A stretch of DNA of 64,000 nucleotides from Lentisphaeria bacterium (GCA_041651315.1 JBAZJM010000004.1:1223-65222); one strand, 5' to 3'; numbered from the stretch's first letter, positions 28,607-49,061 are shown. A program made the numbers and translations. Notes: generated by a model not told the origin, from the letters alone.

Positions 28607-30415
28607 CTAATTCGGCTGCATCGCCGTGTCGTGCGGGCCGCCATCCGGGAGCGGATAGGCGGTGCCGCTCGGATAACCGAAATAAAACCGGGCGCGGGGG
28701 ATCCATTTCGCATGGCCGTCGCAATACACGGCATTGATGCCGTCCAGGAGCCCCCCAGGCTGCAAATGGGCCGAGTTATGGTTGGACATGCCTTCGCCTT
28801 CCCGAAACAACATGTCGGCGAACAGCGGCATGCCTGCGGTGACGTTGGCCGTCAATTGATAGTGCTGATTGGCGGGCACAAACGGCGGTGACCACCAATA
28901 ACCGGGATGCATCGCCACGGTATAGATGTAGCCGGCCTCGTAGTAGGGCTCGGCCATGGCCTGATCCTTGGTCAATATCCCGTAGACGTCATACCTGGCG
29001 CTCGGACAAAACAAGAACCGGTGCAAATTTTGCGTGTCGACGTAATGACTCAGGAACGAGGGGAACCCTTCATTCTGCCAGATGTACCCCCATTTCATGA
29101 TGGCCAAGTCGCCCGGGGTGTTGATCCACGGCCCGGGGAATTGATCCGCGTAATCACTTGCGTACAACTGCGCCAGCACGCCCAGACTCCGCAGGTTGCC
29201 CACACAGACGATGCGCTTGCCCCGTTCCCGCGCGTTGCCCAGCGTCGGCAATAACAACCCCGCCAGCAAGGCAATGATAGCGATAACCACCAGCAATTCG
29301 ACGAGCGTGAACCGCGTCGCCTTGGCTCGGGTTTTTCGGGGGGCAATGGTGGTGCCGTCTACATATGTGGGGGGAAAGACGACGTTGTGAGGCGTCTCCC
29401 CTTTCATCATGTCCAGGCACAGGGTGGCGGCGGCGCGGCCCATTTCTCGCAGCGGATAGGTGAAGGTGGCCAGCCGGTCGGAACCGACCCACATTTCCCG
29501 GATGCTGTCGCAACCGATGACCGACAGATCTTCGGGAACTCTGATCCGGTGTTTCGCGCAGGCCTCCAGCAGGCCCCAGGCCTGGTAATCGTTATAAGGC
29601 ACGATGGCCGTCGGCGCATCGGGATGGTGCAGGATGACGTCGGCGTCGGCCAGGACGGCGTCATGGAACTGACGGTCGCCCTCCTTGAGTGGAGCGTGGG
29701 CGTAGACTCGCGGCTCCAGGCCGGCTTCGCGCATGGCCCGCTCATACCCCTCGCAACGTTGTTTGGCGTCGATGTGGAACCCTTTGATACGGTCATCGTC
29801 ATAACCCGTGAAGGTCAGATGGAGAATACGGCGGTGGCCGATCTCCAGTAGGCGGCGGGTGGCCAAATAACCGATCGCTTCGTGGTCCCGGACTACCGCC
29901 GGTATACCGGGAACGAGGGAGTTGAACAGTTGCACTACCGGCAGGCCGTCGGCGCGCAACGCCTGCAAGCGGGCGAAGTTGTTGGCGCCGTCCCGATCCA
30001 GGGCGGGCATGACGATCAGGCCGTCCACCCGACGGTCCTGGCTGAACTTCAGGTGCCGCCGCTCGTCCGCCGCCGAATTGCCGTGGGCATAGGTGATGAC
30101 GGAATAGTCGTGATCCAGGCAGATGTCCTGAATGCCGCGCAGCAGCGGCATGGAGAAGTCTTCGAAGGTCTCCCGCATCAGCAGCCCCAGCAGGAAGGAG
30201 CAGTTGTTGGTGAAGCTGCGGGCGAGGATGTCCGGCTTGTAATGGAGCCTGGCGGCCACGGCCAGGATTTTCTGCCGTGCCTCCTCGCTGACGCCGATGG
30301 TGGTGGCGGCGGCATCGCTCTTGCGGAACGCCGCCCATACCGCCGAGGAAGACACGCCCGCCTGCCGCGCCACTTCGCGCATGCTGGACGACCTCGGCTT
30401 GGCGGGAGTGGTCAT
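28607..30415 (-). CDS. In-frame fusion of a LacI-family regulator (HTH plus periplasmic-binding-fold ligand domain) to a prepilin-type N-terminal methylation motif and a DUF1559-like pseudopilin domain
   Basis: HTH MREVARQAGVSSSAVWAAFRK...ARLHYKPDILARSF, a LacI-type sugar-binding fold to about residue 395, the basic linker PRKTRAKATR, then [22 protein letters not shown] and the C-terminal NAVYCDGHAKWIP. The frame is continuous, with no in-frame ATG, GTG or TTG in the linker. The start is taken at ATG 30415. Confidence 0.75.
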   Translation of the reverse strand: MTTPAKPRSSSMREVARQAGVSSSAVWAAFRKSDAAATTIGVSEEARQKILAVAARLHYKPDILARSFTNNCSFLLGLLMRETFEDFSMPLLRGIQDICLDHDYSVITYAHGNSAADERRHLKFSQDRRVDGLIVMPALDRDGANNFARLQALRADGLPVVQLFNSLVPGIPAVVRDHEAIGYLATRRLLEIGHRRILHLTFTGYDDDRIKGFHIDAKQRCEGYERAMREAGLEPRVYAHAPLKEGDRQFHDAVLADADVILHHPDAPTAIVPYNDYQAWGLLEACAKHRIRVPEDLSVIGCDSIREMWVGSDRLATFTYPLREMGRAAATLCLDMMKGETPHNVVFPPTYVDGTTIAPRKTRAKATRFTLVELLVVIAIIALLAGLLLPTLGNARERGKRIVCVGNLRSLGVLAQLYASDYADQFPGPWINTPGDLAIMKWGYIWQNEGFPSFLSHYVDTQNLHRFLFCPSARYDVYGILTKDQAMAEPYYEAGYIYTVAMHPGYWWSPPFVPANQHYQLTANVTAGMPLFADMLFREGEGMSNHNSAHLQPGGLLDGINAVYCDGHAKWIPRARFYFGYPSGTAYPLPDGGPHDTAMQPN

Positions 30416-30436
30416 TTTTTTCTGATTTATTTTCGA

Positions 30437-30452
30437 TATAAACATGTTTATA
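30437..30452 (-). promoter_or_regulatory. Perfect 16-bp palindrome TATAAACATGTTTATA, a candidate LacI-type operator
   Basis: It lies 22 nt upstream of the fusion-gene start codon, in a locally AT-rich stretch, just downstream of a -10-like hexamer. Confidence 0.55.
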
Positions 30453-30457
30453 ATGAC

Positions 30458-30485
30458 AATATACACATGTCTATGTTTTATGCAA
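30458..30485 (-). promoter_or_regulatory. Sigma70-like promoter TTGCAT-N16-TATATT for the LacI-pseudopilin fusion gene
   Basis: On the minus strand, TTGCAT is at 30485-30480, followed by a 16-nt spacer and TATATT at 30463-30458. Confidence 0.5.
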
Positions 30486-30581
30486 ATGCCGCCAGCCGGG
30501 TGGGGGTGACAAGAATGTTGGTTGGGACCACCCTTTTGAGGAAAAGCGGTTCCCACCCCCTCCATCAAACCTTTTTGTGCC

Positions 30582-30950
30582 TTAACGCGGAGGGGCGCTT
30601 TCGCCACAAACGTTCTTCTGCTTCCTCATGATCGCGACCAAGACGTAGACGCAAATGGCAATCCAAAGCTGTGCCTGAACGGCGTTCATCGAATTTCCGT
30701 AGAACGCCTTGATGCGCAGATTTTACTTGATCCACCGGAAGAACAACTCCACCTGCCAGCGGTACTTGTAGAGCCGGGCGATGCTGAGCGCATCGGCGTC
30801 GCGAAGGTTCGTGAGGAACACCAGATCCAGTTCGGACACCGGATCGAAGAACTGCACTTTGCGGATCGATTCGGGATACGATTTCCTCGGGTAAAATCCG
30901 CGCAACCGTCCAATCTGGTCGGATCGCCCCCTCTCATCGGGATTGGGATG
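30582..30950 (-). pseudogene. IS4-family (DDE_Tnp_1) transposase remnant covering the C-terminal third only, with an in-frame TAA
   Basis: RSDQIGRLRGFYPRKSYPESIRKVQFFDPVSELDLVFLTNLRDADALSIARLYKYRWQVELFFRWIK-stop-NLRIKAFYGNSMNAVQAQLWIAICVYVLVAI matches the conserved IS4 C-terminus. TAA at 30723-30725 replaces the usual Gln (WIKQ). The N-terminal two-thirds of the protein is absent. Confidence 0.75.
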
Positions 30951-31083
30951 GGGCGTTTGGCGGCCCGGCGACTTGCAACTGGGTTTAACTGGGTTAAACT
31001 ATGCGAAAGATGGCTTTGATGGGTTATGAAAGGTCGCCCAAAACTTCCCGATCATGACAATCACCACGAAAACATCCCGCGTG
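30941..31083 (+). repeat. Copy A of an approximately 140-bp duplicated promoter/operator/5'-CDS module
   Basis: It aligns with 39766-39908. Shared sequence: gccggcgacttgcaactgggtttaactgggttaaactatgc, and later catg(a/g)caatcacca(c/a)gaaaa(c/g)atcccgcgt. Confidence 0.85.
30973..31000 (+). promoter_or_regulatory. Sigma70-like promoter TTGCAA-N16-TAAACT overlapping the inverted repeat GTTTAAC-tgg-GTTAAAC (30983-30999)
   Basis: Read directly. It lies 54 nt upstream of ATG 31054. Confidence 0.5.
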
Positions 31084-32280
31084 TTGTGCATCAAGGGGGT
31101 TCACCCGCAGCACGAACAGGTCCGGAAAACTCTCAAGGAACACCTTGCCACCCTTGAGATCGGTGACCGTTTGGCTTCGGACCGCCAGTTGTCGGCGATG
31201 TTCAACGTGGATCGGACAACGATCCGGCGGGCCATGTCGGACTTGGCGCAAGAGGGGTATGTGCAGCGCCGGCAGGGATGTGGCACCGTCGTTGCGATGA
31301 CCGTCCACTTGGGTGCCCCGTCCGTGTCATCCAAGCTGATCGGGATGACGGTTCCCGACGTCGAAATCCCCTCCTTTGCCTGCTTGCTCAAGGGCGTGGA
31401 CGAGGAAGCGCAGGCGCACGGGTACAGCGTCCTGGTCCGCAATAGCAACCAGGACACCCGGCGCGAGCGGAACATCTTGGAGGAACTCCGCCATCAAAAG
31501 CTGGCAGGCATCATCGTCAACCCATTCCATGAGGATGCGTTTGACCGCGACTATCACCGCCTGTTGAATGAGATCCATCAGGGCGGCACGCGGATCGTCA
31601 TGGTGGACCAATATCTTCCCGGTTTGGAAGAACTGCCCACCGTTTACACCGACAAGGTACAGATTGGCTACCGGGCCACCGAGCATCTGATCATGCTCGG
31701 GCACCGGCGGATCTGCTACCTGACTACCGGCCATTACGACACCACGGGACAAGGCTGCCTTAAGGGGCATCGGCTGGCCCTGAATGAGTACGGCATCGAC
31801 TATGATCCGGCGCTGACGGCGGAAATCCCCAACCCGAATTGCGCGGAGCCCGCTCATGACTTCGTGCTGCGGCTGCTGCGGGCCAATCCCAATGCCTTCA
31901 CGGCCGTTGCCACCCAGCAGTTCTCCATGACTTATGGCATCCTCAATGCCCTGCAGGAGTTGTCGTTGCGCGTTCCAGAGGAGATAGCTGTGGTGGGCGG
32001 TGACGCCTTTGAGAACCCGCGGTTGTCTCATGTCACCCACACTCTGCAACCATTTCAGGAGATGGGGCGCGCCGCGGTCCGACTGGTACTGGGACGCAAC
32101 GGTACCGGCGGCGAAGCCGCCAAGCGGCACGTCCTGCTGCAACCCAGGCTCGTCATTGGCGACACCTGCGGCATGCGGCCGGCCCGGCGTCCTGCAACAT
32201 CGGATGATAGCGCATTGCCCGTGGCTGGCCGGCCCGCGGAAACCGCGGCCGAAAATCGCCCCCCCGGAAAAAAACGATGA
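31054..32280 (+). CDS. Hybrid regulator with a GntR-type winged HTH and a LacI-type (periplasmic-binding-fold) ligand domain
   Basis: RLASDRQLSAMFNVDRTTIRRAMSDLAQEGYVQRRQGCGTVV (GntR HTH), then LIGMTVPDVEIPSFACLLKGVDEEAQAHGYSVLV...KLAGIIV (PBP1 fold). Confidence 0.8.
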   Translation: MTITTKTSRVLCIKGVHPQHEQVRKTLKEHLATLEIGDRLASDRQLSAMFNVDRTTIRRAMSDLAQEGYVQRRQGCGTVVAMTVHLGAPSVSSKLIGMTVPDVEIPSFACLLKGVDEEAQAHGYSVLVRNSNQDTRRERNILEELRHQKLAGIIVNPFHEDAFDRDYHRLLNEIHQGGTRIVMVDQYLPGLEELPTVYTDKVQIGYRATEHLIMLGHRRICYLTTGHYDTTGQGCLKGHRLALNEYGIDYDPALTAEIPNPNCAEPAHDFVLRLLRANPNAFTAVATQQFSMTYGILNALQELSLRVPEEIAVVGGDAFENPRLSHVTHTLQPFQEMGRAAVRLVLGRNGTGGEAAKRHVLLQPRLVIGDTCGMRPARRPATSDDSALPVAGRPAETAAENRPPGKKR

Positions 32281-32301
32281 CGGGACCGGAAAGGTGAACC
32301 C

Positions 32302-32955
32302 ATGCGCCACAAGACAACGCGAGGCTTCACGTTAATCGAACTGTTGGTGGTCATCGCCATCATTGCCATCCTGGCGTCCATGGTATTGCCGGCGTTGCAA
32401 GGGGCCAAGGACAAGGCCAAGGCCATCAAGTGCGTCAGCAACCTCCGGCAGGTGGGCGTGGCCTTCTCCCTGTATAGCGGTGATTATAATGACTGGATAC
32501 TGGTCAATGACCAATACGGGAGCGGCATCTGGGTGCGCGCTTTGTTCAATCATGGCTACATCGCCCAACGGGACATCCTGGTCTGCCCCGGATTCACGCC
32601 TTGTACGTTTGCCCGGCCGATTGATGAATACAGTTACTGGAACACCTATGGGATAAAATTGGCCATTTATTACTCGGGGGCTCCGGCCGGGGATGGCTAT
32701 CAGCACGTATTCTTGCGGGCATCCAGGCTCAATGACGCCTTCTTGGGCGACACCGTGGGCACCAATCGCCACCAGCAGATTGCCTATTTTGTGACAACGT
32801 ACTTTCCTGAAGGCGGTGTCCATGCCAGGCATTCAGAACGGGCGAACATGTTGTTTCCTGACGGACATGTGGCGTCATTGTCCGGCGCGGAATTGCTGAG
32901 CGATGCAAAAACCGGTTATGTGAATGCGCAGGGCATGGACATCCCTTTGCCCTAG
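32302..32955 (+). CDS. Pseudopilin-like protein with a prepilin N-terminal cleavage/methylation motif and the H-X9-DG motif (DUF1559-like)
   Basis: MRHKTTRG|[24 protein letters not shown] has Gly(-1) and Glu(+5). The C-terminal [14 protein letters not shown] is H-X9-DG. Confidence 0.8.
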
Positions 32956-32979
32956 ATGCTTGAAACCTGGAGATAACCG

Positions 32980-35220
32980 ATGAAACGAACGAGTGCGTTG
33001 TTTGGGCTGGCCATGAGCTTGGTGATGCCGCTTTGGGCCGGCGATGATGCGGTTGCCGGAAAAGCGCCAGGAGGGACCATGCGCTTCACTGCCTCTCCCT
33101 GCGATTGGGTGTATGCGCCGGGGGAGCCGGTCCTCGTCACGCTGGCCAGGGACGATGTCTCACGGCCGGCCGAACTGCGGGTGTCGGCCGTCGATTTTTG
33201 GGGGCAGGCCGCCTGCTCGCGAAAAGAGGTCTGGGAAAAGGGCGCGGCCGTGAAAAAGGTCAGCCTGGACTTCGACCGCCTTGGTTATTTCGTGGTCACG
33301 GCGTCTCTGGCCGTCACCGGTGGAAAACCGGATCCGTTTGTGGTGTCACAACCACTGGTTGTCATTCCACCCGCCCCGCCGATACCCAACGACCGGAATC
33401 CGTTCGGCGCCAATTTCCATCTTACCTGGTTCTCCGACGCTGCCGCGGAAAAGGAGCTCCGCCTGGCCCGACGCATCGGTTTTGGCTGGGGACGAGGGCT
33501 GCTTTTTGACTGGGTGCAGTTCGCGGCTCCCCCCAACCTGAACGATCCCAAGTTCTGCGCCCAATGGGATAGATTCATTGCCCTGATTGAAAAATCCGGC
33601 ATCGCTTGCCTGGGAGCCGTTTATTATGTTCCTAAGTGGGCTTCCGGCGCACCGGACAGCAGTGAATTCGGGGTCTGGTCCAGAACCATGCCAGACGACC
33701 TGACGCCCTTGACAAATTACTGCGAAGCCATGGCCAAGCGGTTCCCGTCCGTCCGCTATTGGGAAGTGGGCAACGAATCTGACGCCGTGCTTTTTTGGCA
33801 TGGGCGGAAGAACAGTTATGCGTCCGCTGATGACCAAAAGATCATCGAAGATTACGTTGATTTCCTTGCGGCGGCCGCCAAGGGATTCCGCCGGGGAAAC
33901 CCGGCGGCCCGCATTTTGTTCTCGGGCATTACTGACGCACGGGAGGATGGCGCCGACTATCGGCCCTTTGTCAAGCATGCGTTCAGCCGCGGAGCGGGAC
34001 GCTATGCCGATGTCATGAACGTCCATTATGTGAAGGACATTCCCGCTGTACGCCGGCTGCTGAAGGCGACGGGCGACGATTCAAAGCCCGTATGGGTTAC
34101 GGAGATTGGCGGCTGGACCACCGGCGAGGATGGCGACCCCCGCCCCCAGATCATCCGCGATATCACCCAGTCGGTCATCCAACTGTCGTCCGGTGCGGAA
34201 CGGGTTTTTAAGTTCGGCATCCGCAATGACGTCATTGATCCCGCGGGCTTTGACTACAAGTTCGGGCTGGTGCGGAACGATTTCGTCCCACAACCAGCCT
34301 ACGTCGCCTATGCCACCCTGATCCGGCTCATGGCGGACGCGACGTTCAAGAAGGAGTTGAACGTCACCGCGCAAGCCTCGCCCGGCTGGCTTCGGGGTTA
34401 TGAATACTCCTCCCCCCAAGCCGCGTTCTTAAATTGCCTCTGGCTGAATGAGGCGTCCAAGGCGGCGGTCGTTTTGCAGACAGCCGCTCCAACACTCACC
34501 CTGATCGACGTCATGGGAAACGCTCGCGAACTCAAGGCCCATGACGGGATCGTCCGTTTTGAGGCGGACGCCTTGCCGTTCTTCATCGTCGGACCGATTT
34601 CCGACCGTCAAGGGGAGATCAAGTATCCAGCGGATGAGTTTGTCCGAACCATTCCCATCCCGTTGGCCAATCCCGGTTTTGAAGCGGAACCGGCGGGCGG
34701 TTTTCCATTCCCTGGATGGATCTCCACCTTTGCCCCCAATTGCACGCTCAGCAGGAACCTGGCGCCGCCCTCCGTCCATGGCGGAAAGGCCTCTGCCGCC
34801 ATACACGTGCCGGCGCCAGTCAAAATTGCGGGGAAGACAACGCCATGGCCCCCCTGGCCGGACATTCACCAGCGCCTGGACTGGGCCTCACTCCGTCCGC
34901 AATTAACTGCCAATGAATATTTAAAAGTTCGCCTCGAAGCCTGGGTGAAATGTACAGGGGTCACCGGTCCCGGGGTTTGTGTTGGCTGTTTCTTAACCGA
35001 CAAGAACGGGGCACGAGTCCGAAGATGGGTGGAGACGGCACCACGTCCCTGGGGAAATGCGTCCGGCTGGGAGCGTCTTGAATTGGCCGGGACCATCCCC
35101 GTTCCAGACGAAAACGGGAAGCTGAGTGTCGAGCTGCATATGGCTCCCGGCACGTGCGGGACGGTTGAGTGGGATGACTTGTCCCTGTCGATTGAGGTAT
35201 GGCGAAAGCAGATTAAATGA
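32980..35220 (+). CDS. Secreted clan GH-A glycoside hydrolase (family unassigned) with a C-terminal beta-sandwich/CBM-like region
   Basis: Signal peptide MKRTSALFGLAMSLVMPLWA, the acid/base-like YWEVGNESD and the nucleophile-like VWVTEIGGW. Confidence 0.6.
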   Translation: MKRTSALFGLAMSLVMPLWAGDDAVAGKAPGGTMRFTASPCDWVYAPGEPVLVTLARDDVSRPAELRVSAVDFWGQAACSRKEVWEKGAAVKKVSLDFDRLGYFVVTASLAVTGGKPDPFVVSQPLVVIPPAPPIPNDRNPFGANFHLTWFSDAAAEKELRLARRIGFGWGRGLLFDWVQFAAPPNLNDPKFCAQWDRFIALIEKSGIACLGAVYYVPKWASGAPDSSEFGVWSRTMPDDLTPLTNYCEAMAKRFPSVRYWEVGNESDAVLFWHGRKNSYASADDQKIIEDYVDFLAAAAKGFRRGNPAARILFSGITDAREDGADYRPFVKHAFSRGAGRYADVMNVHYVKDIPAVRRLLKATGDDSKPVWVTEIGGWTTGEDGDPRPQIIRDITQSVIQLSSGAERVFKFGIRNDVIDPAGFDYKFGLVRNDFVPQPAYVAYATLIRLMADATFKKELNVTAQASPGWLRGYEYSSPQAAFLNCLWLNEASKAAVVLQTAAPTLTLIDVMGNARELKAHDGIVRFEADALPFFIVGPISDRQGEIKYPADEFVRTIPIPLANPGFEAEPAGGFPFPGWISTFAPNCTLSRNLAPPSVHGGKASAAIHVPAPVKIAGKTTPWPPWPDIHQRLDWASLRPQLTANEYLKVRLEAWVKCTGVTGPGVCVGCFLTDKNGARVRRWVETAPRPWGNASGWERLELAGTIPVPDENGKLSVELHMAPGTCGTVEWDDLSLSIEVWRKQIK

Positions 35221-35296
35221 CCGGCTTCGTGATGGTGTGGGTTAAACGGGCTAACCGTGTTGATGGGGAAAACCAAGAGGTCAAGGAGTTGTTGTC

Positions 35297-36790
35297 ATGC
35301 CCTTCCGCATTTATGAAGTGCCTTCCGCAGAGAAATGCAACGAGGAATGGCAATTTCTACTGGAGGGCCGGCCAGTCCCGCTTCGCGAGGCGCGGGTCTC
35401 CGCGGTGCCGTTCAACCGGCGCTGGCCGGGGCACCAACGCGGCCTTGAGCAGACCGAGCTTGTCCCCTTTGCCGCTTTTGAACTGGATGGACCGGTGCAG
35501 GTTACGGTAAAACCGCCGGGAACGTTTCAACACGCTATCGTGCGCCCTCTCTCAAAAGGGGTTGTCCCGCAAACCGACGGCCGTCATATTACCTTTGCGC
35601 TCCGGGAGGCCGGTGCCTACACGCTTGAGCTTGACGGACACCATCATGCCCTGCACATTTTTGCCGACCCTCCGAAAGATTATGGCATCACGTGCCGACA
35701 CGACAATACGCTCTATTTTGGCAAAGGCCTGCACGAGGCCGGGATGATCACGCTGAAAAGCGGGCAGACGGTCTTGATTGACGAAGGCGCGGTAGTCTAT
35801 GCCTGCATTCACGCGAAAAACGCCGACAATATAAAAATTTTGGGGAAAGGCATTCTCGACAACAGCAAAAATCAGGAGCAGATCCTTTTTGAACTAAAAA
35901 AAACGGGGGATGGCAGTGTGGATAGCGGCAACGCCAAGCGCATTCATACCGTGCAGCTTGAATATTGCAACAATATAGAAATCGACGGCATCACCATCCG
36001 GGACTCGCTGGTTTACAATATACGGCCGGTCTGTTGCAATGGTTTGTCAATCAATAATGTTAAACTCATTGGCAATTGGCGTTTCAATAGTGACGGGATC
36101 GATTTGCACAACTGTATTCACACCACCATCCGCAATTGTTTTTTGCGTACCTATGACGATGCCATTTGTGTCAAGGGCTTTGACTATCGGCATCGCGAAT
36201 CGGACCGGAATGGCGGGCGGAACGATTATTCGTCGATGGATGACGTCCTCATTGAGAAATGTGTCATCTGGTGCGATTGGGGGCGGGCGCTGGAGATCGG
36301 AGCCGAAACACGCGCCGAAGAGATAAAAAACATCACGTTCCGTGACTGTGATATCATTCGCAGCACGCATGTTGCCATGGACGTGCAAAATGTCGATTAC
36401 GCCGACGTGCATGACATCGTTTTTGAAAATATCCGGGTCGAGTATGACCCGGTCTGCCAGGCGCCCGCCATACAGGGAACCGACCAGGAGGCCTTCGTTG
36501 AGGATACCAACAGCAGATATCTGCCGGCCTTAATGAGTTCAAGCATCCTCAAACACCATGAGTATTCCGCGGGCGGCGCCCGCCGCGGCAAAAACCATGA
36601 TATCCTCTTTAAGGACATACAGGTTACGGCGACGCGGATGCCGCCGTCTTCTTTCGGCGGTTATGATGAAGCACACCAGACAGCGCGGGTAAAAATAGAA
36701 AATCTCCGCCTGAACGGAAAAAAGCTGACCACACTCACTGAAGCCATGATTGCCCTCCGGCCATTTGCCAACGACATCACGATTCAGTGA
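35297..36790 (+). CDS. Glycoside hydrolase family 28-like (polygalacturonase-type parallel beta-helix) with no signal peptide
   Basis: NSDGIDLHNCIHTTIRNCFLRTYDDAICVKG matches the GH28 catalytic Asp motifs. G+C is lower than in the flanks. Confidence 0.75.
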   Translation: MPFRIYEVPSAEKCNEEWQFLLEGRPVPLREARVSAVPFNRRWPGHQRGLEQTELVPFAAFELDGPVQVTVKPPGTFQHAIVRPLSKGVVPQTDGRHITFALREAGAYTLELDGHHHALHIFADPPKDYGITCRHDNTLYFGKGLHEAGMITLKSGQTVLIDEGAVVYACIHAKNADNIKILGKGILDNSKNQEQILFELKKTGDGSVDSGNAKRIHTVQLEYCNNIEIDGITIRDSLVYNIRPVCCNGLSINNVKLIGNWRFNSDGIDLHNCIHTTIRNCFLRTYDDAICVKGFDYRHRESDRNGGRNDYSSMDDVLIEKCVIWCDWGRALEIGAETRAEEIKNITFRDCDIIRSTHVAMDVQNVDYADVHDIVFENIRVEYDPVCQAPAIQGTDQEAFVEDTNSRYLPALMSSSILKHHEYSAGGARRGKNHDILFKDIQVTATRMPPSSFGGYDEAHQTARVKIENLRLNGKKLTTLTEAMIALRPFANDITIQ

Positions 36791-38066
36791 AGTCCGGGCA
36801 TTTGATGACCGACGGCACCAGGCCGAGGGTCACGACCAAAAGGGTCACCATGATTGAACAGCAGAGAATCAAGGTGTCGTACTGGCCCATTTGATGTCCG
36901 GCAAAAGTCCAATGGTCGTTTAGCAGTCCGAACTTTATTGCCTGGGAACTAAAAAGGCCTGACAACGCAACGCCCGCACTGCAAAGAGCTTGATTGATCG
37001 CGGTGGCCACTGGCTTGTTGTCCGCGGGCGTGAGGCGGATCATCTCGGAAGTCAACGCGATTCCCGATGACGCTTGGACACAGCCGAAAACCGCGCCCAA
37101 CGCCCCGACAAATAAAAGCGCAAAAGGAGCCGGTACAAACCCCCTGAAAAGATAAACCAGAAGAATCGCGCCAAATGAAAAGTGGCAAATCAAAAACATT
37201 ATTTTTGTCCCAAGCCGGTCAACCATTTTTCCGCCCAAGTAAAAACCGCCCATCGAACCAAGCATAAGCAAATTCCCCGTCAGGATCACTTCATCGTCGC
37301 CCAAGCCCAACGGTCCCTTCGCTAAAAGGGCGAACAGGCTCGCGCAGCAACCGGTCGCCAGCATCAGTAAAAAGGTGTACGCGCAAAAGGGCATAAACCC
37401 CGGTGCCACAATTGCCTTCCAAATGGACTCGCGTAACGACGGGCGTGGACCGGACTCAACCTGGTTTGCGGGAAGGCGTGAAAGGTAGATGATCCCGGCG
37501 ATTTTGCCGACCAGCGCTAGGCACATGAAAAGCTGGAACACCTTTAGGCTGGAGTCGCGTTTTAAAACCGCGATCACCGCCAACGCAAACAGGATTGACA
37601 CCGCCTGAAAAAAAAACCGCATCGTCCCGAAAAAACGCCCGCGTTCATTGTCCGGCACAAACGTCGACGTCAACGGAAACCAGGACGCCACATACAACGA
37701 CATGCCGACGCCGTTGGCGAGCATCCCGGTCCAGATGAATAACCAGTCCTTGCCAAACGGTTTAAAAAACGGCGCGCCGATAAGTAAAATAAACCCCGCC
37801 GCGCTTACGCATTGCCCGGTCATGCCATTCCTCACATAAGGGGAACGTCCCGAGTAATGAGCCGCCGGAACCATGGTAAACATGTAAACCAAAGGGGACA
37901 GCGCCAAATAGACCAGTATCATGTCGCTGGGCACGCCTAGCGCGGCAAGGTACATCAGCATAAAGCTGTTGTAGTACAAATTGTCAACAACCCCATAAAG
38001 ACAGGTGGCCTTTATGGCGGTGGACATCGCCTTCTTTTGCTCAGGCGAGGCGGAACGGGTCATCAT
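36777..38066 (-). CDS. MFS transporter
   Basis: 429 aa with about 12 hydrophobic segments and low G+C. Its 3' end overlaps the convergent GH28 gene by 14 nt. Confidence 0.7.
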   Translation of the reverse strand: MMTRSASPEQKKAMSTAIKATCLYGVVDNLYYNSFMLMYLAALGVPSDMILVYLALSPLVYMFTMVPAAHYSGRSPYVRNGMTGQCVSAAGFILLIGAPFFKPFGKDWLFIWTGMLANGVGMSLYVASWFPLTSTFVPDNERGRFFGTMRFFFQAVSILFALAVIAVLKRDSSLKVFQLFMCLALVGKIAGIIYLSRLPANQVESGPRPSLRESIWKAIVAPGFMPFCAYTFLLMLATGCCASLFALLAKGPLGLGDDEVILTGNLLMLGSMGGFYLGGKMVDRLGTKIMFLICHFSFGAILLVYLFRGFVPAPFALLFVGALGAVFGCVQASSGIALTSEMIRLTPADNKPVATAINQALCSAGVALSGLFSSQAIKFGLLNDHWTFAGHQMGQYDTLILCCSIMVTLLVVTLGLVPSVIKCPDFTES

Positions 38067-38087
38067 CTTGCCCCCGCAGGGAACCGC

Positions 38088-38654
38088 CTATTTCCGGCGC
38101 CGGCGCAGAACGGCCAAGCTACCGAGGGCCAGCAAGGCCATGCTGGCGGGTTCAGGCACGACCGAAATATGGTCGATGGCGATGACCACCGTGTTGTCCG
38201 CCGGTTGGCCGGGCCGAAGTGAGCAATTTAGAAAGGTATATTCAAAAACACCGGTAGCGTTAGCGGTAAAACTGTAGGTGTAGGTACGCCATTCAGTGGA
38301 AACGGCCGTGTAACTAGTGTAGACCCCGCCCAATGCATTAAGTAAATAGGGATTGGTGCCGGACGTGTTGGACACCATTTTGGCCATGAACGAGACCCAA
38401 TAGGTCGTCCCCGCCTCCACATGCAGATAATCCGCCGTGACCAGGCCAAACCACGTATTATTGGTTAACTGCACATTGGCGCCGTACGGCGACCCGTTCG
38501 TATTGGTCGAATCCCACAGCGCCTTCCCTGAGGTATGATCAGTCCATCCAGTTGTACCGTTGGTGAAATCAGGATTGGCGATCATGTTGGCCATTCCCGT
38601 TTGGGCGATAGCCAGCAGCGACACGATCAGTAAACAAGACAGGGCGTTTTTCAT
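38088..38654 (-). CDS. PEP-CTERM-anchored secreted protein with a CBM-like domain
   Basis: Signal peptide MKNALSCLLIVSLLAIAQTGMA, IANPDFTNGTTGWT opening a CBM4/9-like domain, and the C-terminus VPEPASMALLALGSLAVLRRRRK. The start is taken at ATG 38654. Confidence 0.8.
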   Translation of the reverse strand: MKNALSCLLIVSLLAIAQTGMANMIANPDFTNGTTGWTDHTSGKALWDSTNTNGSPYGANVQLTNNTWFGLVTADYLHVEAGTTYWVSFMAKMVSNTSGTNPYLLNALGGVYTSYTAVSTEWRTYTYSFTANATGVFEYTFLNCSLRPGQPADNTVVIAIDHISVVPEPASMALLALGSLAVLRRRRK

Positions 38655-38874
38655 GATCGGCTCCTTGTTCGGTTTGTTTCCCATCTGCCGCCCGGCCGCC
38701 ACGTTAGGTGCGACCCGCCATTCAGGACGGAATGATACATACTTCATAAACATAGCGGTGCCGGCGCCTGCCGACCATGGATGTTTCTGTCAAAAACATA
38801 TACAGTATGGTATATTCGCTTTGCCGGACTAGACTATGGCCCAGCCATAACCCGTATTTATTATTGCAGAGGCC

Positions 38875-39753
38875 ATGATGAAAGGATCCTGGATCATTGG
38901 TCATGTTTTTTCCGGCGGAACCTTGACCGGAATTAATCCGCGGCTTATCTCCGCCATTGCCAAGCGTCGGATCACGAAGATGCTGAGTCCTGGCTATATC
39001 GTGGCCGCCTGGGTACTTGACTATGCGGTGGATGATTCCGGCCTTTGCCGGGTGCGGATGGCAAACGGCGCCTGGTACGCCCGTGAACCGGGAACCGCCC
39101 ACCTTTACGCGCCAGGAACCCGGGTGTGGGAAGATAGCCGCATGACCACCGGCGGTTTTGAATCCCGGTATGTTGTCTTCACCGGCGGCCAGTTGGCGGG
39201 ATTGGATGAATTTGTCCAGAACAGCCGGGGATTTGGGCGGTTCCAGGACCCGGCCGGACTGCTGGGGGAACGGTTGCGGCAGATCGCCCTGGCGGTTCAG
39301 GACGGCGGTGCCGGGGCGTTCTGGCACGCGCAAGGCCAGCTTGCCGACCTTTTTGCCCTGCTGTTGCGGCAGACGCACCCGGTGGCGGGCAGCAATTTTG
39401 TCCGCGTCATTGCCGAGGCCCCCACCGACGGCATCATGGGAGTGGTGGAACAGGCAGAGCAGTGGCTGTCCGTCCATTATCGGGATGCCTTTTCGCTGGC
39501 GGCCCTAGCCGCTCGCCTGAAGGTGAGTCCCACCACGCTGACGCACCGGTACAAGCGTCTCACCGGCGAAAGTCCGGTGCAGGCGCTGCTCGCCATCCGG
39601 GTCAGCCATGCCAAGGAACTGCTGTTGCGCGGCCACAGTTTGAAACAAATCGCCGCGGAAACCGGCTTTTACGACCCGTTCCACCTGTCCAGGGTATTCA
39701 AGAAGAAGACGGGACTGTCCCCCCGTCAATATCTGAAACGGCATGGTGCCTGA
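38875..39753 (+). CDS. AraC-family transcriptional regulator, paralogue of 57507..58380
   Basis: C-terminal double HTH (LSLAALAARLKVSPTTLTHRYKRLTGESP...IAAETGFYDPFHLSRVFKKKTG). By eye it matches 57507..58380 at roughly two-thirds of positions along its full length. Confidence 0.85.
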   Translation: MMKGSWIIGHVFSGGTLTGINPRLISAIAKRRITKMLSPGYIVAAWVLDYAVDDSGLCRVRMANGAWYAREPGTAHLYAPGTRVWEDSRMTTGGFESRYVVFTGGQLAGLDEFVQNSRGFGRFQDPAGLLGERLRQIALAVQDGGAGAFWHAQGQLADLFALLLRQTHPVAGSNFVRVIAEAPTDGIMGVVEQAEQWLSVHYRDAFSLAALAARLKVSPTTLTHRYKRLTGESPVQALLAIRVSHAKELLLRGHSLKQIAAETGFYDPFHLSRVFKKKTGLSPRQYLKRHGA

Positions 39754-39765
39754 AACGAGTTATCC

Positions 39766-39908
39766 GATTGGATAGGGGGGGCCGGCGACTTGCAACTGGG
39801 TTTAACTGGGTTAAACTATGCAAGAGATGGTTTTAATGGGCTATTTGCAAGTCGTTCAGAATTTCCCTTCTTCCCTTCATGGCAATCACCAAGAAAAGAT
39901 CCCGCGTC
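39766..39908 (+). repeat. Copy B of the approximately 140-bp duplicated promoter/operator/5'-CDS module
   Basis: It aligns with 30941-31083 in the same orientation. Confidence 0.85.
39790..39817 (+). promoter_or_regulatory. Second copy of the TTGCAA-N16-TAAACT promoter with the inverted repeat GTTTAAC-tgg-GTTAAAC (39800-39816)
   Basis: Read directly. It lies 62 nt upstream of ATG 39879. Confidence 0.5.
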
Positions 39909-40220
39909 GGGAGGACGGTTCACGACGTCGAAATTCCCTATCTGGACCGCCTTCCCGACCGGGCCTGGGAAATCGCCGGCCTGATCTCTGGGCTGTTCAG
40001 TTCGTTCTACATCGTGCTCCAGATCGTTTCCGAGATTCACGCCACAGGGCCTTCCACACTCTCTTTGGGGTTCGTGGTCGGCAATCTCGTCAACATCGCC
40101 TTCTGGCTCCTGTACGGAGTACGGTTCCGGCGCTGGGCCGTCTGGGTGGTCAATTTGGCGGCCTTGCTCGCCCAATCCACGCTTCTGGCCGTGGTGGTCC
40201 TGTCCCACGGACATCCATAA
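39879..40220 (+). CDS. Small 3-TM membrane protein, SemiSWEET/PQ-loop-like
   Basis: 113 aa. SSFYIVLQIVSEIHATGPSTLSLGFVVGNLVNIAFWLLYGV fits the PQ-loop pattern (xQIxxxxxTxxxxxLS...WxxYG), with Leu in place of Pro, and there are three hydrophobic helices. The overlapping alternative frame 39818..40225 was rejected. Confidence 0.5.
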   Translation: MAITKKRSRVGRTVHDVEIPYLDRLPDRAWEIAGLISGLFSSFYIVLQIVSEIHATGPSTLSLGFVVGNLVNIAFWLLYGVRFRRWAVWVVNLAALLAQSTLLAVVVLSHGHP

Positions 40221-40240
40221 ACTGATAGAGGATTCCCTAC

Positions 40241-41323
40241 ATGGATGACATCATCAAGCCACGCGGCCCACTGGCCCGGTTCAAACAGGCGATTCAGTCG
40301 GGCAAGGTGCGGGTCGGATTCATCGGCGGCTCGATCACGGAAGCCCACCGCGAATCCAACTGGCCCTATTTCATCCGGGCCTGGTTCGTCAAAAAGTTCC
40401 CCGGCGTCCGGGCGGCCTGGGAAAACGCCGCCATCGGCGGCACGGGCAGCCTGAGCGGCGTCATGCGCGCCCAGCGAGACCTGCTTGACACCCGCTGCGA
40501 CATCGTGTTCGTCGAATACGCCGTGAACGACGGCCCGGGCGAAGCGACCATGCGGACCCGCGAAGGGCTGATCAGGAAGCTGCTGGAGGAGGAGCGTGAC
40601 GTGATCCTGGTCTACACCTACTGCCAAGACATGTACGCGGCGATGTCCGCCGGCCAAATGCCTGCCTCCATCGTCGAGCTGGAGATATTGGCGGAACACT
40701 ACTGCCTCCCCTCCGTCTGGATGGGGCTCCATGCCTATAACGAGATGAAGGCGGGCCGGATGACCTGGGAAGGCTGGCTGCCCGACGGGCTGCACCCCGA
40801 TTATCTGGGCAGCAGCATCTACGCCGAGCCGGTGATCGCCTTCCTGGAGGCGGAACTGGCGGGGCCGGCCCGGCCGTCCATCCCCAGTGGGGCGCTGCTT
40901 CCCGCCCCCCACACTCCCAACCATTTTCAAGACATCCGCGAGATCCCCCTCGACGACGCCGAGCTACGCGGGCCGTGGACCGAGATGCGGGAGGTGATCC
41001 TGCCGTGGTACCGCACGGCGCTCTGCACGGCGGCGGACGGGGCGGAACTGAGCCTCCACTTCACCGGGCGCGCCCTCTGCGCGATGCTCAATTTCGGCAA
41101 GACGTCGGGCGTCCTCAAGTACCGCTTCGATGGCGGCGAATGGCGGGAATTCACGGGGGAGCGCTGCTGGTGGGTGCCTGACAAGAACTGGTGCCAACCG
41201 GTGCTGCTCGCCGACGACTTGAGCGACGGAGCACACCGCTTCGACCTCCGGGTGGTGCACGGCAACCGCGAGGAGTGCAAAGGCACCACCTGCAAGATCT
41301 TCACCTTCATGGCGGTGCAATGA
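40241..41323 (+). CDS. SGNH/GDSL-family hydrolase (putative carbohydrate esterase) with a C-terminal beta-sandwich
   Basis: Block I GFIGGSITE, block III EYAVNDG and block V DGLHPD. Confidence 0.7.
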   Translation: MDDIIKPRGPLARFKQAIQSGKVRVGFIGGSITEAHRESNWPYFIRAWFVKKFPGVRAAWENAAIGGTGSLSGVMRAQRDLLDTRCDIVFVEYAVNDGPGEATMRTREGLIRKLLEEERDVILVYTYCQDMYAAMSAGQMPASIVELEILAEHYCLPSVWMGLHAYNEMKAGRMTWEGWLPDGLHPDYLGSSIYAEPVIAFLEAELAGPARPSIPSGALLPAPHTPNHFQDIREIPLDDAELRGPWTEMREVILPWYRTALCTAADGAELSLHFTGRALCAMLNFGKTSGVLKYRFDGGEWREFTGERCWWVPDKNWCQPVLLADDLSDGAHRFDLRVVHGNREECKGTTCKIFTFMAVQ

Positions 41324-41433
41324 TGAAACGGGCAACCTTCATCACCAAACTTGCTGTAAACTCAAATTCAGACTACTGAAAACACCTCGCCCATCCGTAA
41401 TTCCGGGCGGCACCACGCCGCCGGACCGTCCGG

Positions 41434-42948
41434 TCACGCCCCGAGGCGCCACCGGCGGCCGTCAACCACCGGCAGTTGGGCGGCGGCGGCCGGCCCCCAG
41501 GAGCCGGCCGGATAGGGGTGCAACGGGCAGTTGCCCCCGCTCCCGGCGGCGGCCCAGGCGTCCAGCACCGGTTGCCAGAACTGCCAGGAGCGCCGCACCA
41601 GGTCGCCGGAGAGGAACAGGGCCTGGTCGCCGAGCAGGGCGTCGAGCAGCAGCCGCTGGTAGGCGTCGGGCGGATCGGCCTGGAAGGCCTGGCGGTAGGA
41701 GACGTCCAGGTCCATGGTGCTCATGCACAGCTTGGGGCCGGGACGCTTGGCCTGCACGGTGAGCTCCAGCCCCTCGTCCGGCTGCACCCGCATGACCAGC
41801 ACGTTGGGCGCCAAGTCCTCGGGCCGGAGCGAGGCGAAGATGGAATGCGGCACCGGTTTCAGGGTCAGGGCGATCTCGCTGACCCGGCGGGCCAGCCGTT
41901 TGCCGGTGCGCAGATAGAACGGCACCCCGGCCCAGCGCCAGTCGTCCAGGAACAGGCGGGCGGCGAGATAGGTTTCGGTGCCGGAGTCCGCACGCACGCC
42001 GGGCTCGCCGCGATAGCCGGGGCCGGCAGGGCCGGCGGCGTACTGGCCGCGCACCAGGTCGGCGGCGATCCGCTCCGGGGTCCACGGCCGCAGCGTGCCG
42101 AGCAGGCGCGTCTTCTCCGCCTCCAGCGCGGCGGCGTCAAAGCGGGGGGGCTCGCCCATGGCCACCAGGGCCAGCAGTTGCAGCAGATGGTTCTGGCACA
42201 TGTCGCGCAGCGCGCCGGCGGCCTCGAAGTAGCCAGCCCGGTGTCCCACGCCGGCCTCCTCGGCAACGGTGATCTGGACATGGTCGATGTGGTCGCGGTT
42301 CCACACCGGGCCGAACACCCGGTTGGCAAAACGCAGCATGAGGATGTTCTGGACGGTGTCCTTGCCCAGATAATGGTCGATCCGGTACAGCTGTTCCGGG
42401 CGCAGGACACGGGACAGGCGCTGCTCCAGCTCATCGGCGGTGGGGAGATCGTGGCCGAACGGTTTCTCGATGACCACCCGGCGCCACGGTGCGCGGCCGG
42501 GCGTCACCAGCCCGCCGGCGGCCAGCTGCTCGCACACCGGCGCGTACACCTCCGGCGGCAGGGCCAGGTAAAAGAGGCGGTTGCCGCCGGTGCCGAAACG
42601 GGCCTCCAGCTCCGCCAGGCGCCCCGCCAGGGCGGCGTACCCGGCCGCGTCATCATAGCCGCCGGCCTGGTAGAAGCAGCGTCCGGCCAAGGCCTGGCCG
42701 CCCGGTCCGGGGCAGATCTCCGCCACCGTTTGGGCGAAGGCCGCGTCGTCCAGCGGGGTGCGGCCGTACCCGAGCAGGAAGAACTGCGCCGGCAGCAGGC
42801 GGCGGTCCCCGGCCAGGGCCCCCAGGGCGGGCAACAGCTTGCGCCGGACCAGATCGCCGGAGGCGCCGAACAGCACCAGGCCAGCCGGCTCCGGGGTACG
42901 CTCCATGCACAAGTGGTCGGTGATGGTAATCCGCGGCACCACATTCAT
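41434..42948 (-). CDS. zwf: Glucose-6-phosphate 1-dehydrogenase
   Basis: LVLFGASGDLVRRKL NADP site and the RIDHYLGKDTVQNILMLRFAN signature. The start may be the internal MERTPEP at 42906. Confidence 0.9.
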   Translation of the reverse strand: MNVVPRITITDHLCMERTPEPAGLVLFGASGDLVRRKLLPALGALAGDRRLLPAQFFLLGYGRTPLDDAAFAQTVAEICPGPGGQALAGRCFYQAGGYDDAAGYAALAGRLAELEARFGTGGNRLFYLALPPEVYAPVCEQLAAGGLVTPGRAPWRRVVIEKPFGHDLPTADELEQRLSRVLRPEQLYRIDHYLGKDTVQNILMLRFANRVFGPVWNRDHIDHVQITVAEEAGVGHRAGYFEAAGALRDMCQNHLLQLLALVAMGEPPRFDAAALEAEKTRLLGTLRPWTPERIAADLVRGQYAAGPAGPGYRGEPGVRADSGTETYLAARLFLDDWRWAGVPFYLRTGKRLARRVSEIALTLKPVPHSIFASLRPEDLAPNVLVMRVQPDEGLELTVQAKRPGPKLCMSTMDLDVSYRQAFQADPPDAYQRLLLDALLGDQALFLSGDLVRRSWQFWQPVLDAWAAAGSGGNCPLHPYPAGSWGPAAAAQLPVVDGRRWRLGA

Positions 42949-43000
42949 TTCTGCGCCCTCCCGGAAAAACTGCTGCCGCCACTATAGCATGGGGGCCAGC

Positions 43001-43096
43001 CACACGGACGCACACCGACGGACACGGACCCGCACGGACCAGGCAAAAGCAACACCGGTCCGGGCCAGTCCGTGAAGGTCCGTGTTCGTCCGTGCC
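43001..43096. repeat. Palindrome with arms of 10-nt tandem repeats: 4 x (NNCACGGACN), a loop, then 4 x (GTCCGTGNNN)
   Basis: cacacggacg cacaccgacg gacacggacc cgcacggacc | aggcaaaagcaacacc | ggtccgggcca gtccgtgaag gtccgtgttc gtccgtgcc. It lies between the divergent zwf and symporter genes. Confidence 0.85.
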
Positions 43097-43160
43097 CCCG
43101 ACCGGTATGGAGTATATTCCGCTCTTCCGGCGGCATCGGCTCCGGACGGGGTGCCCATTG

Positions 43161-45412: not shown

Positions 45413-46438
45413 TCAGGCATCCGGGCCGGCCGGCGGCACGGCCAGGCAACGGTTCACCCCTTCGGCGCCGGAGACAATCGGGGCGTACCCGAAATCGGCC
45501 TGGGCGCGGGTGTGGCGGAAAAAGTGATCCATGCCGAGCTGGGCGGCGGTGAAACGGGTGAGCCACGGCTCGCCCAAGGCCGGCACCAGGCGATACACCC
45601 TTTCCAAAACGGCGCCGACCCGCATCGCCGTCCCCAGGGAAAGGTGGTGCCGCACCGGCGGCCGGTGCAGCCGTTTCAGCAGATTGCCAATCCAGTCCCA
45701 CAGACAAACCGGTTCGGCGTCGCCGATGAAATAGGCGCCACCGGCCGGCGGCGCACCGGGATCGGCCAGCGCCTCCAGGGCCAGCAGATGAGCCCAGGCG
45801 GCGTTGTCCACATAGGTGATGTCCACCCGGTTGACACCGGCGCCGATACGCCACAGCCGGCCGCGGCGGGACAGCTCCACGATGCGGGGCAGCAGATGCG
45901 GGTCGCCGGGACCGAAAATCAGGTGCGGGCGCAGGGCGCAGGTGGCCAGGCGCCGGCCGGGATGGGCGGCCATGGGCGTGCCGTTGGCGGCCAGGACGCA
46001 CTGTTCGGCCGCCGCCTTGGACATGGCATAGGGCGCCAGGTGCCGCCGGGGATAGGGCAGCGTTTCGTCGGCCCCGGCCAGGGGACGGCCGCCAAACACC
46101 ACGCTGGGCGAGCTGGTGAAGAGCAGCCGGGACACGCCCTGGCGGAGGCACGCACGGATGACCTCCTCCGTTCCCTGGACATTGGTCCGGTGGTAAAGCG
46201 CGTCCCGGCCCCAGACGCCGGCCAGGGCCGCGGCATGCACCACGGCGTCACGCCCGGCGCAGGCGGTGTCCAGGGCGGCCGGTTCGAGCAGGTCACCGGT
46301 CAGGCAGGCAAAGCCGGCCCGCTCCAAGTCGGGATAGGGGCGGCGGCCGAACACGGCAACGTCATGGCCGCGGCTGCGCAGCATCGCTGCCACGCGCCGC
46401 CCCAAAAACCCGCCTCCTCCGGTGATCAAAACGCGCAT
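45413..46438 (-). CDS. NAD-dependent epimerase/dehydratase (3-beta-HSD-like SDR)
   Basis: MRVLITGGGGFLGRRV Rossmann motif and the YAMSK catalytic YxxxK. The start at 46438 is one nt downstream of the leuA stop codon. Confidence 0.8.
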   Translation of the reverse strand: MRVLITGGGGFLGRRVAAMLRSRGHDVAVFGRRPYPDLERAGFACLTGDLLEPAALDTACAGRDAVVHAAALAGVWGRDALYHRTNVQGTEEVIRACLRQGVSRLLFTSSPSVVFGGRPLAGADETLPYPRRHLAPYAMSKAAAEQCVLAANGTPMAAHPGRRLATCALRPHLIFGPGDPHLLPRIVELSRRGRLWRIGAGVNRVDITYVDNAAWAHLLALEALADPGAPPAGGAYFIGDAEPVCLWDWIGNLLKRLHRPPVRHHLSLGTAMRVGAVLERVYRLVPALGEPWLTRFTAAQLGMDHFFRHTRAQADFGYAPIVSGAEGVNRCLAVPPAGPDA

Positions 46439-46439
46439 G

Positions 46440-48352: not shown

Positions 48353-48565
48353 CTGCAATCATCCCTGGGGCGTACCTGCAAAACCCAAAAATCACGACTA
48401 AATCCAAAGATTACTATAACGCGACCCCACCACCGCGCAAACACCCCCCGTCAGCGGGCGCATGTCCGCTTCCCTCTTCTGTAGCGGCGCCTGTGCCAGG
48501 CGCCCCCACATGACCACTCCCCACGCGGCTGGCACAGCCGCGGCTACAGCGGAACACCCCCGCTT

Positions 48566-48857
48566 CGCGGGGTTGCACCCCGCGCCTGGAGTTTGGCACA
48601 AGTACGGGTTTTGGAGGTAGCTTCGTCCCGGAGGGACTGAATGACAATAGGCAGGGGCTTCAGCCCCTGCTCCGGAAAATAAAAAGATGGCGTGCCGTAG
48701 GTACGCCGCGATTCGCCGCGTACCTGACGGCACGCGAAACGGGGGGGGCAAAACACAGGGGCTGAAGCCCCTGCCTATTCCCGCCCCGTCCCGCTGGGAC
48801 GGGAAAACCGCCCCCGTTGAGTTCTGCCAAACTCCAATCGCGGGGTTGCACCCCGCG
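48566..48857. mobile_element. MITE-like nested palindromic element, copy 2 (TIRs at 48585-48598 and 48825-48836), bracketed by two copies of the 19-bp palindrome CGCGGGGTTGCACCCCGCG
   Basis: The core is near-identical to copy 1 (15150-15360). The flanking palindromes are at 48566-48584 and 48839-48857. Confidence 0.7.
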
Positions 48858-49061
48858 GAGAGGCGTGGCCGGTCAGGGAGTTGCCAACCGGATCACCAAG
48901 AAATCCCGACGGAAGTGACAGGCGCCCCGCCGCCCAACGGGTATGGACAGAACCCGCCAGTGCCACTAGATTACAGCTTTAACGCCCGCGCCTGAAACAT
49001 CAGGACTGCAACCGGGCGGCCGTGGAAACCATCACCTGTTCGGGAGGCGCGTCACCCCATT

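Follow-up and report, generated by a model that had tools for sequence, protein, structure and literature searches.

Why do two unrelated proteins, a transcriptional regulator and a small membrane protein, begin with nearly the same ten residues? This question is raised by a 64-kb stretch of DNA from a Lentisphaeria bacterium (GCA_041651315.1, JBAZJM010000004.1:1223-65222), which as a whole is called the window in the following and is numbered from its first letter. It belongs to a metagenome-assembled genome from a landfill sample, held by one public run only, and the run data analysed are the k=31 contigs of this one run. An initial annotation had read the two protein starts as MTITTKTSRV and MAITKKRSRV, which is how both read, and had traced them to a duplicated promoter module. 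It left two explanations side by side: a promoter-operator unit was copied and now drives a second gene, or the 8.7 kb between the two copies form a cassette that was inserted or can be excised. We consider it likely that the promoter and the 5' end of an AraR-type regulator gene were duplicated, that this second copy decayed and that it was fused in frame to the gene of a SemiSWEET-like transporter, with the operator shared by both genes. The first explanation stands insofar as the unit was copied and now lies before a second gene, but the piece that was copied belongs to the regulator gene, being its 5' end, which explains the like beginnings of two unrelated proteins.

The duplication itself is evident from the alignments. 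In a global alignment, positions 30940-31082 and 39766-39907 are identical in 118 of 152 columns (78%), with boundaries that differ by 1-2 nucleotides (nt) from those of the initial annotation, and the pair reaches blastn E values of 1e-25 to 1e-26, so that the similarity is significant. A core of 40 nt, CCGGCGACTTGCAACTGGGTTTAACTGGGTTAAACTATGC, is identical in both modules, and outside this core the identity of the modules is 70%. Shuffling of the alignment columns yielded a run of at least 40 identical columns in 0.02% of the trials (P ~2e-4), and therefore the core has been kept more alike than its surroundings. Within the window no third match to the core is found with up to 3 mismatches (0 expected by chance), and the sequence GTTTAAC-N3-GTTAAAC, which is contained in the core, occurs only at 30983-30999 and 39800-39816 (0.02 expected). 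On the left, the repeat edge (30940) coincides with the breakpoint (30943) of an insertion sequence (IS) relic, the 3' remnant of an IS4-family transposase gene (Table 1). This remnant had been noted before and is real, as it matches IS4-family transposases in tblastn with 50-56% identity and E values of 1e-15 to 1e-17; a second copy of the IS in the metagenome, about 92% similar, diverges from the window at 30943. The truncation linked to the IS erased what preceded the left promoter, so that the duplication may at first have extended further to the left than can be aligned today.

The initial annotation had followed the duplication through the start codons and the first ten codons, which holds true, but the homology resumes past codon 10 behind an in-frame gap of 258 nt: in a self-comparison of the window, 39907-39939 match 31340-31372 in 30 of 33 nt. 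Codons 11-20 of the transporter open reading frame (ORF) encode GRTVHDVEIP where codons 97-106 of the regulator encode GMTVPDVEIP, and this segment carries the motif IGxxxPDVExP that is conserved throughout the regulator family. Compared to the regulator gene, 86 codons are missing, including the whole GntR winged helix. Two in-frame junctions thus give the transporter a chimeric N-terminus, and the chimeric ORF is intact, with the ATG at 39879 as its only canonical in-frame start before helix 1. Only two homologues of the transporter were found, P0002 and P0003 (98-100 residues, 67-74% identity). They start with MT(V/K)SV..., align from about residue 22 onwards, have neither residues 1-21 nor a motif of the IGxxxPDVExP type, and are encoded directly behind a gene for a sugar transporter of the MFS type, with no module upstream on their contigs. 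Because the in-frame regulator blocks are absent from these homologues, the first 20-21 codons of the transporter gene are relics of the regulator copy, and for annotation it has to be kept in mind that the first 21 residues of the protein are foreign to the transporter family. Three of the four substitutions within codons 1-10 change the encoded residue (T2A, T5K, T7R), as does M98R in the second block, and the gains of lysine or arginine, which account for three of these four replacements (T5K, T7R, M98R), would suit the cytoplasmic tail of a membrane protein. A tblastx search downstream of the right copy for more relics of the regulator operon gave none.

The protein that follows the captured leader resembles SemiSWEETs of known structure (PDB 4x5m, 4rng, 4qnc) in its size of about 100 residues, in its number of transmembrane helices (three) and in the W..YG......N pattern that helices 2-3 show; unlike these, its PQ motif reads LQ and it carries the 21 N-terminal relic residues. 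The NCBIfam model SemiSWEET_2 matches residues 34-105 with an E value of 1.2e-5 and 25.4 bits against a cut-off of 80, the Pfam model MtN3_slv scores 14-16.9 bits against a cut-off of 23.7, and 4x5m is the top match of a profile search against the PDB (0.007). An AlphaFold2 model predicts helices at residues 24-54, 60-83 and 86-110, and the top 16 PDB matches returned by Foldseek are all SemiSWEET or SWEET structures with probabilities of up to 0.99, although the E value is approximately 0.1 and the model pLDDT 65; the target-normalised TM-score is 0.54-0.60 for the SemiSWEET chains. As the scores lie under the curated cut-offs and the model confidence is modest, the predicted protein is labelled SemiSWEET-like here and is not called a member of the family. 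The GDSL/SGNH esterase gene directly downstream is probably co-transcribed with the transporter gene. In wastewater runs, an esterase that is about 93% identical has unlike sequence upstream of its ATG, and the identical 3' end of the transporter is followed by unlike sequence after the stop codon; the adjacency of transporter and esterase, which are separated by the spacer 40221-40240 in the window, is therefore specific to this lineage. The right-hand region thus looks like a mosaic of rearrangements.

What the copied unit may contribute can be judged from the promoters of orthologous regulators, whose upstream DNA was taken from other metagenomes (L014, 81% identity; L015 and L017, 61%; L034, 58%). 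All four share one layout, consisting of TTGnnn, a 16-17-nt spacer with two direct TGGGT boxes 9-10 nt apart and TAnnnT, and all four have another TGGGT box 20-30 nt further downstream. L014 matches the window in 18 of 18 nt, ACTGGGTTTAACTGGGTT, and the rest of its upstream region is unalignable, while L032 (a 50% orthologue) has three TGGT boxes with 9-nt spacing. The boxes of the candidate operator in the window contain the inverted repeat GTTTAAC/GTTAAAC (30983-30989 and 30993-30999). The initial annotation had emphasised this perfect 7-bp inverted repeat, and it is indeed present in both copies, but it is not conserved at the orthologous promoters, which read GTTTAAC..GTTTATG in L014 and GTCTAC..GTGTAT in L015 and keep the direct TGGGT boxes. 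To judge from these alignments, it is the direct repeat that has been conserved, and only this genome has the perfect palindrome. Within the window and the fetched 10-20-kb loci, TGGGT-N4-6-TGGGT occurs only at these promoters, and a relaxed two-box scan of the window recovered no further promoter-like sites or regulon members, its matches being at or below chance level. Promoter spacers do not usually keep their sequence, and so the conservation of the boxes is most readily explained by a protein that binds there. The AraR-type regulator is the only gene consistently linked to them (window, L014, L015, L017, L034), and the left module, with the layout of the orthologues, is the ancestral arrangement. 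In L015 (1510-1573), L017 and L034, the regulator leader is made up, as far as the start codon, of 8-bp units in a tandem array, (CCCAACCG)n, and the contig of L016, which begins 73 nt upstream of the gene, ends inside this array.

The regulator itself matches known domains. Its GntR domain (PF00392, residues 21-80) is detected with an E value of 8.6e-15 and 54.6 bits against a cut-off of 27, its effector domain matches Peripla_BP_3 (8.6e-23) and Peripla_BP_1 (3.3e-18), its matches in the PDB include the effector domain of Bacillus subtilis AraR (3tb6, 5.1e-17), and public sources label its homologues as 'GntR family regulator of arabinose operon'. B. subtilis AraR combines a GntR-type winged helix with a LacI/GalR-type sugar-binding domain, represses genes of glycan and sugar utilisation, and has operators both within the promoter of its own gene and, in multiple phased form, at some promoters (PMC1950556). 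The regulator described here has the same chimeric domain architecture, and its host is, unlike that of AraR, an uncultured bacterium. Among named genomes, the best relatives of its G6PD and regulator genes come from Lentisphaerae/Lentisphaeria assembled from metagenomes. Because the boxes are always linked to the regulator gene and because AraR has an operator in its own promoter, the left module is probably the autoregulated promoter/operator of the regulator.

The boxes could also be bound by the AraC-family protein encoded upstream of the right copy, by a fusion of LacI and pseudopilin parts encoded to the left of the left copy or by an alternative sigma factor, and some other control input would then have been spread by the duplication. 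It counts for such a binder that direct repeats with helical spacing are usually seen with proteins of the AraC or OmpR type rather than with dimers of the GntR family. The palindromic nature of the known AraR operator (PMC1950556) points in the same direction. We nevertheless regard another binder as very unlikely: the AraR-type regulator alone is linked to the boxes at all five loci, the left copy has no AraC gene, nor do L015 and L017 as far as genes were called there, and each box fits the GntR signature GT-N-AC (GTTTAAC, GTCTAC). Furthermore, no module is present behind a second AraC-family gene of the window (57508-58380), which is followed by a 9-bp tandem array only. This paralogue has 75.7% DNA identity to 39009-39753 of the AraC gene before the right module; the array directly after it, GTCCGTTCT in approximately 10 units, spans 58422-58510.

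The origin of the arrangement by promoter duplication would be reconstructed as follows. The starting point would have been the native promoter of the AraR-type regulator, with boxes in spacer and leader and probably autoregulated. A segment with this promoter and the 5' part of the gene would have been duplicated in this lineage, the copy lying 8.8 kb downstream, and this would have happened after the split from the L014 lineage, because the right copy is closer to the left copy than to L014 in leader and codons. The second copy would then have decayed by loss of the 86 codons of the DNA-binding domain and of everything past codon 106, and its fusion in frame to the SemiSWEET-like gene would have replaced the transporter's own first ~10 codons. 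The transporter, and probably the esterase too, would now rely on a promoter, a leader and a start codon derived from the regulator. As the 40-nt core has stayed identical in both promoters, one would expect the regulator from the left copy to bind both modules and to place the transporter-esterase pair under the sugar signal of the regulator operon. An RNA element in the leader was considered and rejected, as Rfam has no match in the window and the leaders fold no better than shuffled sequences (z +0.3 to +1.1). Since the leaders are unstructured and without a Shine-Dalgarno motif, the capture of the first codons along with the promoter may have mattered for translation.

Several observations weigh against this reconstruction or parts of it. 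No site resembling the AraR operator, a 16-bp palindrome, ATTTGTACGTACAAAT (PMC1950556), is present in the 64-kb window with up to 3 mismatches, and the conserved element here consists, unlike that palindrome, of 2-4 direct TGGGT boxes in and after the promoter spacer. The -35/-10-like pair that had been proposed, TTGCAA-16 nt-TAAACT, is present, but these hexamers, which were picked from the sequence by reading, agree with the consensus at only 8 of 12 positions and stay under the threshold of a simple promoter scan. Promoter activity, a protein that binds the boxes and co-regulation are what we infer from the sequence, and the one RNA-labelled run that matches the right-hand stretch does so outside the module. 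A pre-fusion state was not found in any close relative, only the distant homologues (67-74%) being unfused, and the closer relatives in wastewater (fragments 93-100% identical) stop short of the transporter 5' end and of both modules. Two routes fit the present arrangement: either a large segment was duplicated in tandem and deletions came later, or a small copy was dispersed. Finally, the identical run is 40 nt long compared to ~23 nt conserved with the closest orthologue, L014, and part of the core identity may reflect gene conversion rather than selection; the 40-nt core may go back to a constraint specific to this lineage or to a patch of gene conversion.

Such a recent conversion patch is also part of another reading, according to which the right copy is the inert scar of a dead regulator paralogue, its perfect core does not reflect function, and the transporter is either silent or transcribed by read-through that starts at the AraC gene, so that the two genes would share no regulation. 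The identical run exceeds the part conserved in L014 by 8 nt upstream and 9 nt downstream, as a conversion tract would, the third box of the right copy is degraded to TGGGC, and prediction on the + strand gave nothing like a terminator from the AraC stop codon to the module. However, both junctions are in frame, an otherwise intact and conserved 3-helix protein has no usable start but the regulator-derived ATG, the replacements in the captured codons mostly add lysine or arginine as would suit a cytoplasmic tail, and the box layout is constrained across the orthologues. A mere scar therefore appears unlikely to us, and the duplicated and fused promoter is preferred.

Table 1. Coordinates of the modules, of the genes connected with them and of the features in between (positions in the window).
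Feature	Positions	Strand	Remarks
3' remnant of IS4-family transposase gene	30582-30943	-	C-terminal part only; translation has ...LYKYRWQVELFFRWIK; truncation point adjoins left module
Left module: promoter, 5' leader, regulator codons 1-10	30940-31082	+	alignments; same layout at orthologues
40-nt core, left	30965-31004	+	-35-like TTGCAA 30973-30978, 16-nt spacer, -10-like TAAACT 30995-31000
Candidate operator: two direct TGGGT boxes, 10 nt apart (TGGGTTTAAC TGGGTTAAAC), in promoter spacer	30980-30999	+	conserved at orthologues
Further leader boxes TGGCTTTGA TGGGTTAT	31011-31027	+	third TGGGT box 20-30 nt downstream in orthologous promoters too
AraR-type regulator, 408 residues	31054-32280	+	GntR winged helix residues 21-80; LacI-type sugar-binding domain residues 95-372
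Regulator codons 97-106 (GMTVPDVEIP)	31342-31371	+	start of sugar-binding domain; source of second block
Pseudopilin-like N_methyl protein	32302-32955	+	
Rest of interval between the copies	32302-39753	.	no recombinase
PslG/GH39-like protein, 746 residues	32980-35220	+	
GH28	35297-36790	+	
MFS transporter	36777-38066	-	
CBM4_9/PEP-CTERM protein	38088-38753	-	
AraC-family regulator	38875-39753	+	
Right module	39766-39907	+	alignments; begins 12 nt past AraC stop codon
40-nt core, right	39782-39821	+	-35-like 39790-39795, -10-like 39812-39817, TGGGT boxes 39797 and 39807
Regulator-derived leader of transporter ORF	39879-39938	+	codons 1-10 = regulator 1-10 (26/30 nt); codons 11-20 = regulator 97-106 (27/30 nt)
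Chimeric SemiSWEET-like 3-helix membrane protein, 113 residues	39879-40220	+	native part from near codon 22 (39942)
GDSL/SGNH esterase gene	40241-41323	+	20 nt downstream of transporter; Pfam Lipase_GDSL_2; PDB 6hfz 'GDSL-like protein' 4.9e-26

The second explanation of the initial annotation, that the modules are the ends of a recombination-bracketed cassette of 8.7 kb, either inserted when a circular intermediate underwent homologous recombination or open to excision or deletion, found no support and is in our view highly unlikely. It draws on the direct orientation of the repeats, on the 40-nt identical core, which could in principle allow a rare RecA-dependent deletion, on the IS4 relic at the left edge, on the right-hand neighbourhood, a lineage-specific mosaic in which the esterase and transporter of relatives have other flanks, and on the G+C content. 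The lower G+C that had been reported for part of the interval is present, with values of 0.49-0.55 at 35400-38900 (GH28, MFS and CBM genes) as compared to 0.70-0.73 at 41400-43200 and 45600-46500 (G6PD and housekeeping genes), and by composition the glycan genes look foreign to the core genome. Yet none of the 7 predicted genes of the interval matches an integrase, recombinase or transposase family in Pfam, and the truncated IS4 relic lies outside the interval. The contigs contain no joined form, although k=31 contigs are blind to a recombinant across a 40-nt identical core, and the contig depth is flat, with 10.7-10.9 inside the interval and 10.8-11.8 outside. The repeats, ~143 nt with 78% identity and composed of promoter, leader and coding fragments of the regulator, are unlike attachment sites or target duplications; the two colinear regulator fragments at the right repeat are predicted by a decayed gene copy, not by such sites, and the flanks of the core, which are about 70% identical, are a poor substrate for recombination. 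The comparison with relatives yielded no syntenic one; that with 83% identity in G6PD is not syntenic.

The module is also not one of many copies of a dispersed element. In the k=31 contigs, the 40-nt core forms a unitig of its own with a depth of 26.4, compared to 8.8-11.8 for the flanking contigs, and two contigs enter and two leave it, which corresponds to approximately two copies in the whole landfill metagenome. Because of this roughly twofold depth and of the two entries and two exits, the core is not a dispersed repeat, and the search for further copies of the palindrome promoter that the initial annotation had suggested thus ended with two in the window and about two in the metagenome. 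A scan of species-representative genomes gave chance matches in unrelated taxa only; a first scan of JGI metagenome contigs gave no matches, and a second one found nothing but soil contigs in which AACTGGGTTT forms 10-bp tandem arrays in an unrelated context. A generic genome-wide repeat was rejected on the basis of the two copies in the window, the roughly twofold core unitig and the scans without related matches. The array unit AACTGGGTTT is the same as the box unit of the window, and the -35/-10 context is absent from it; the arrays are intergenic, have 3-6 units and lie on unrelated contigs (L018-L030, JGI, mostly from soil). An assembly artefact was considered as well and rejected: the identical part is only 40 nt long, and a second assembly record (a k141 contig in the ENA, most likely from the same sample) has the identical arrangement with 1 mismatch in 21 kb. 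For assemblies of this kind it is to be noted that the 40-nt core is precisely where the k=31 contigs end.

The duplication and fusion can be compared to known routes by which genes obtain new promoters or new 5' ends. In the long-term evolution experiment with Escherichia coli, the rnk-citT module of Cit+ cells is reportedly a case of promoter capture by duplication. Activation of transferred genes by tandem duplication is described in a further report (PMC11111574). The locus is like promoter capture in that a duplicated promoter with a piece of a 5' gene end stands before a gene without a promoter of its own. It differs in being no laboratory event but an old one that became fixed in nature, the copies having diverged by about 20-30% outside the core; the captured promoter is that of a regulator, with its likely operator, the start codon and 20 codons came along and created a translational fusion, and a tandem intermediate is not demonstrable here. 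Deletion-born fusion genes, in which distant gene fragments are joined in frame by a deletion, are outlined in PMC12803068. As in such fusions, a new ORF has received its 5' end from another gene; unlike them, two junctions exist here, from regulator codon 10 to 97 and from regulator codon 106 to about codon 11 of the transporter, and the donor fragment stems from a duplicate, the donor gene being intact 8.8 kb away. The locus is an unusually clear natural case of the known processes of promoter capture and gene fusion, and no new mechanism is involved.

The significance of the locus lies in a natural regulatory rewiring whose relics are still legible, since promoter, probable operator, leader, start codon and 20 codons were reused together. 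It also provides a candidate operator for sugar regulators of an unstudied group, found in uncultured bacteria that degrade glycans, and suggests one regulon for the GH28/GH39-like operon and the SemiSWEET-like/esterase pair. More tentatively, and as an idea that we put forward with clear reservation, the phased direct TGGGT boxes could represent an undescribed operator type of AraR-like regulators, which form a large and uncharacterised family in Lentisphaerae-like bacteria, and the module could record the recruitment of genes into a glycan regulon. If true, this lineage would add genes to its glycan regulon by copying the promoter, operator and translation start of the regulator before them.

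The regulator gene heads a run on the + strand which continues with the genes of the pseudopilin-like N_methyl protein, the PslG/GH39-like protein and the GH28 enzyme, and AraR-like regulators recur beside pseudopilin-like (N_methyl/HX9DG) genes. Regulator and pseudopilin are encoded as adjacent separate genes at 31054-32955 and likewise beside the orthologues in L014, L015, L031, L032 and L034. On the - strand at 28607-30607 (gene called at 28607-30382), a LacI helix-turn-helix and sugar-binding domain are fused at the C-terminus to a prepilin-type methylation helix and an HX9DG-like tail. This recurrence suggests a functional link between the regulators and the pseudopilin-like proteins. The contig depth rises to ~970x over the IS4 relic (30500-30830) and to ~455x over the N-terminal prepilin motif (32322-32386), both very high; related copies of the two are numerous across the community.

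Two further repeat families were observed elsewhere in the window. An element of ~240-360 bp that resembles a miniature inverted-repeat transposable element, with nested long inverted repeats, is present at 15023-15387 and 48560-48863 (89.6% identical). Moreover, a repeat of ~100 nt occurs at 43002-43100 and 63284-63381, where the copies are 77% identical and also match in reversed orientation, the repeat being partly palindromic.

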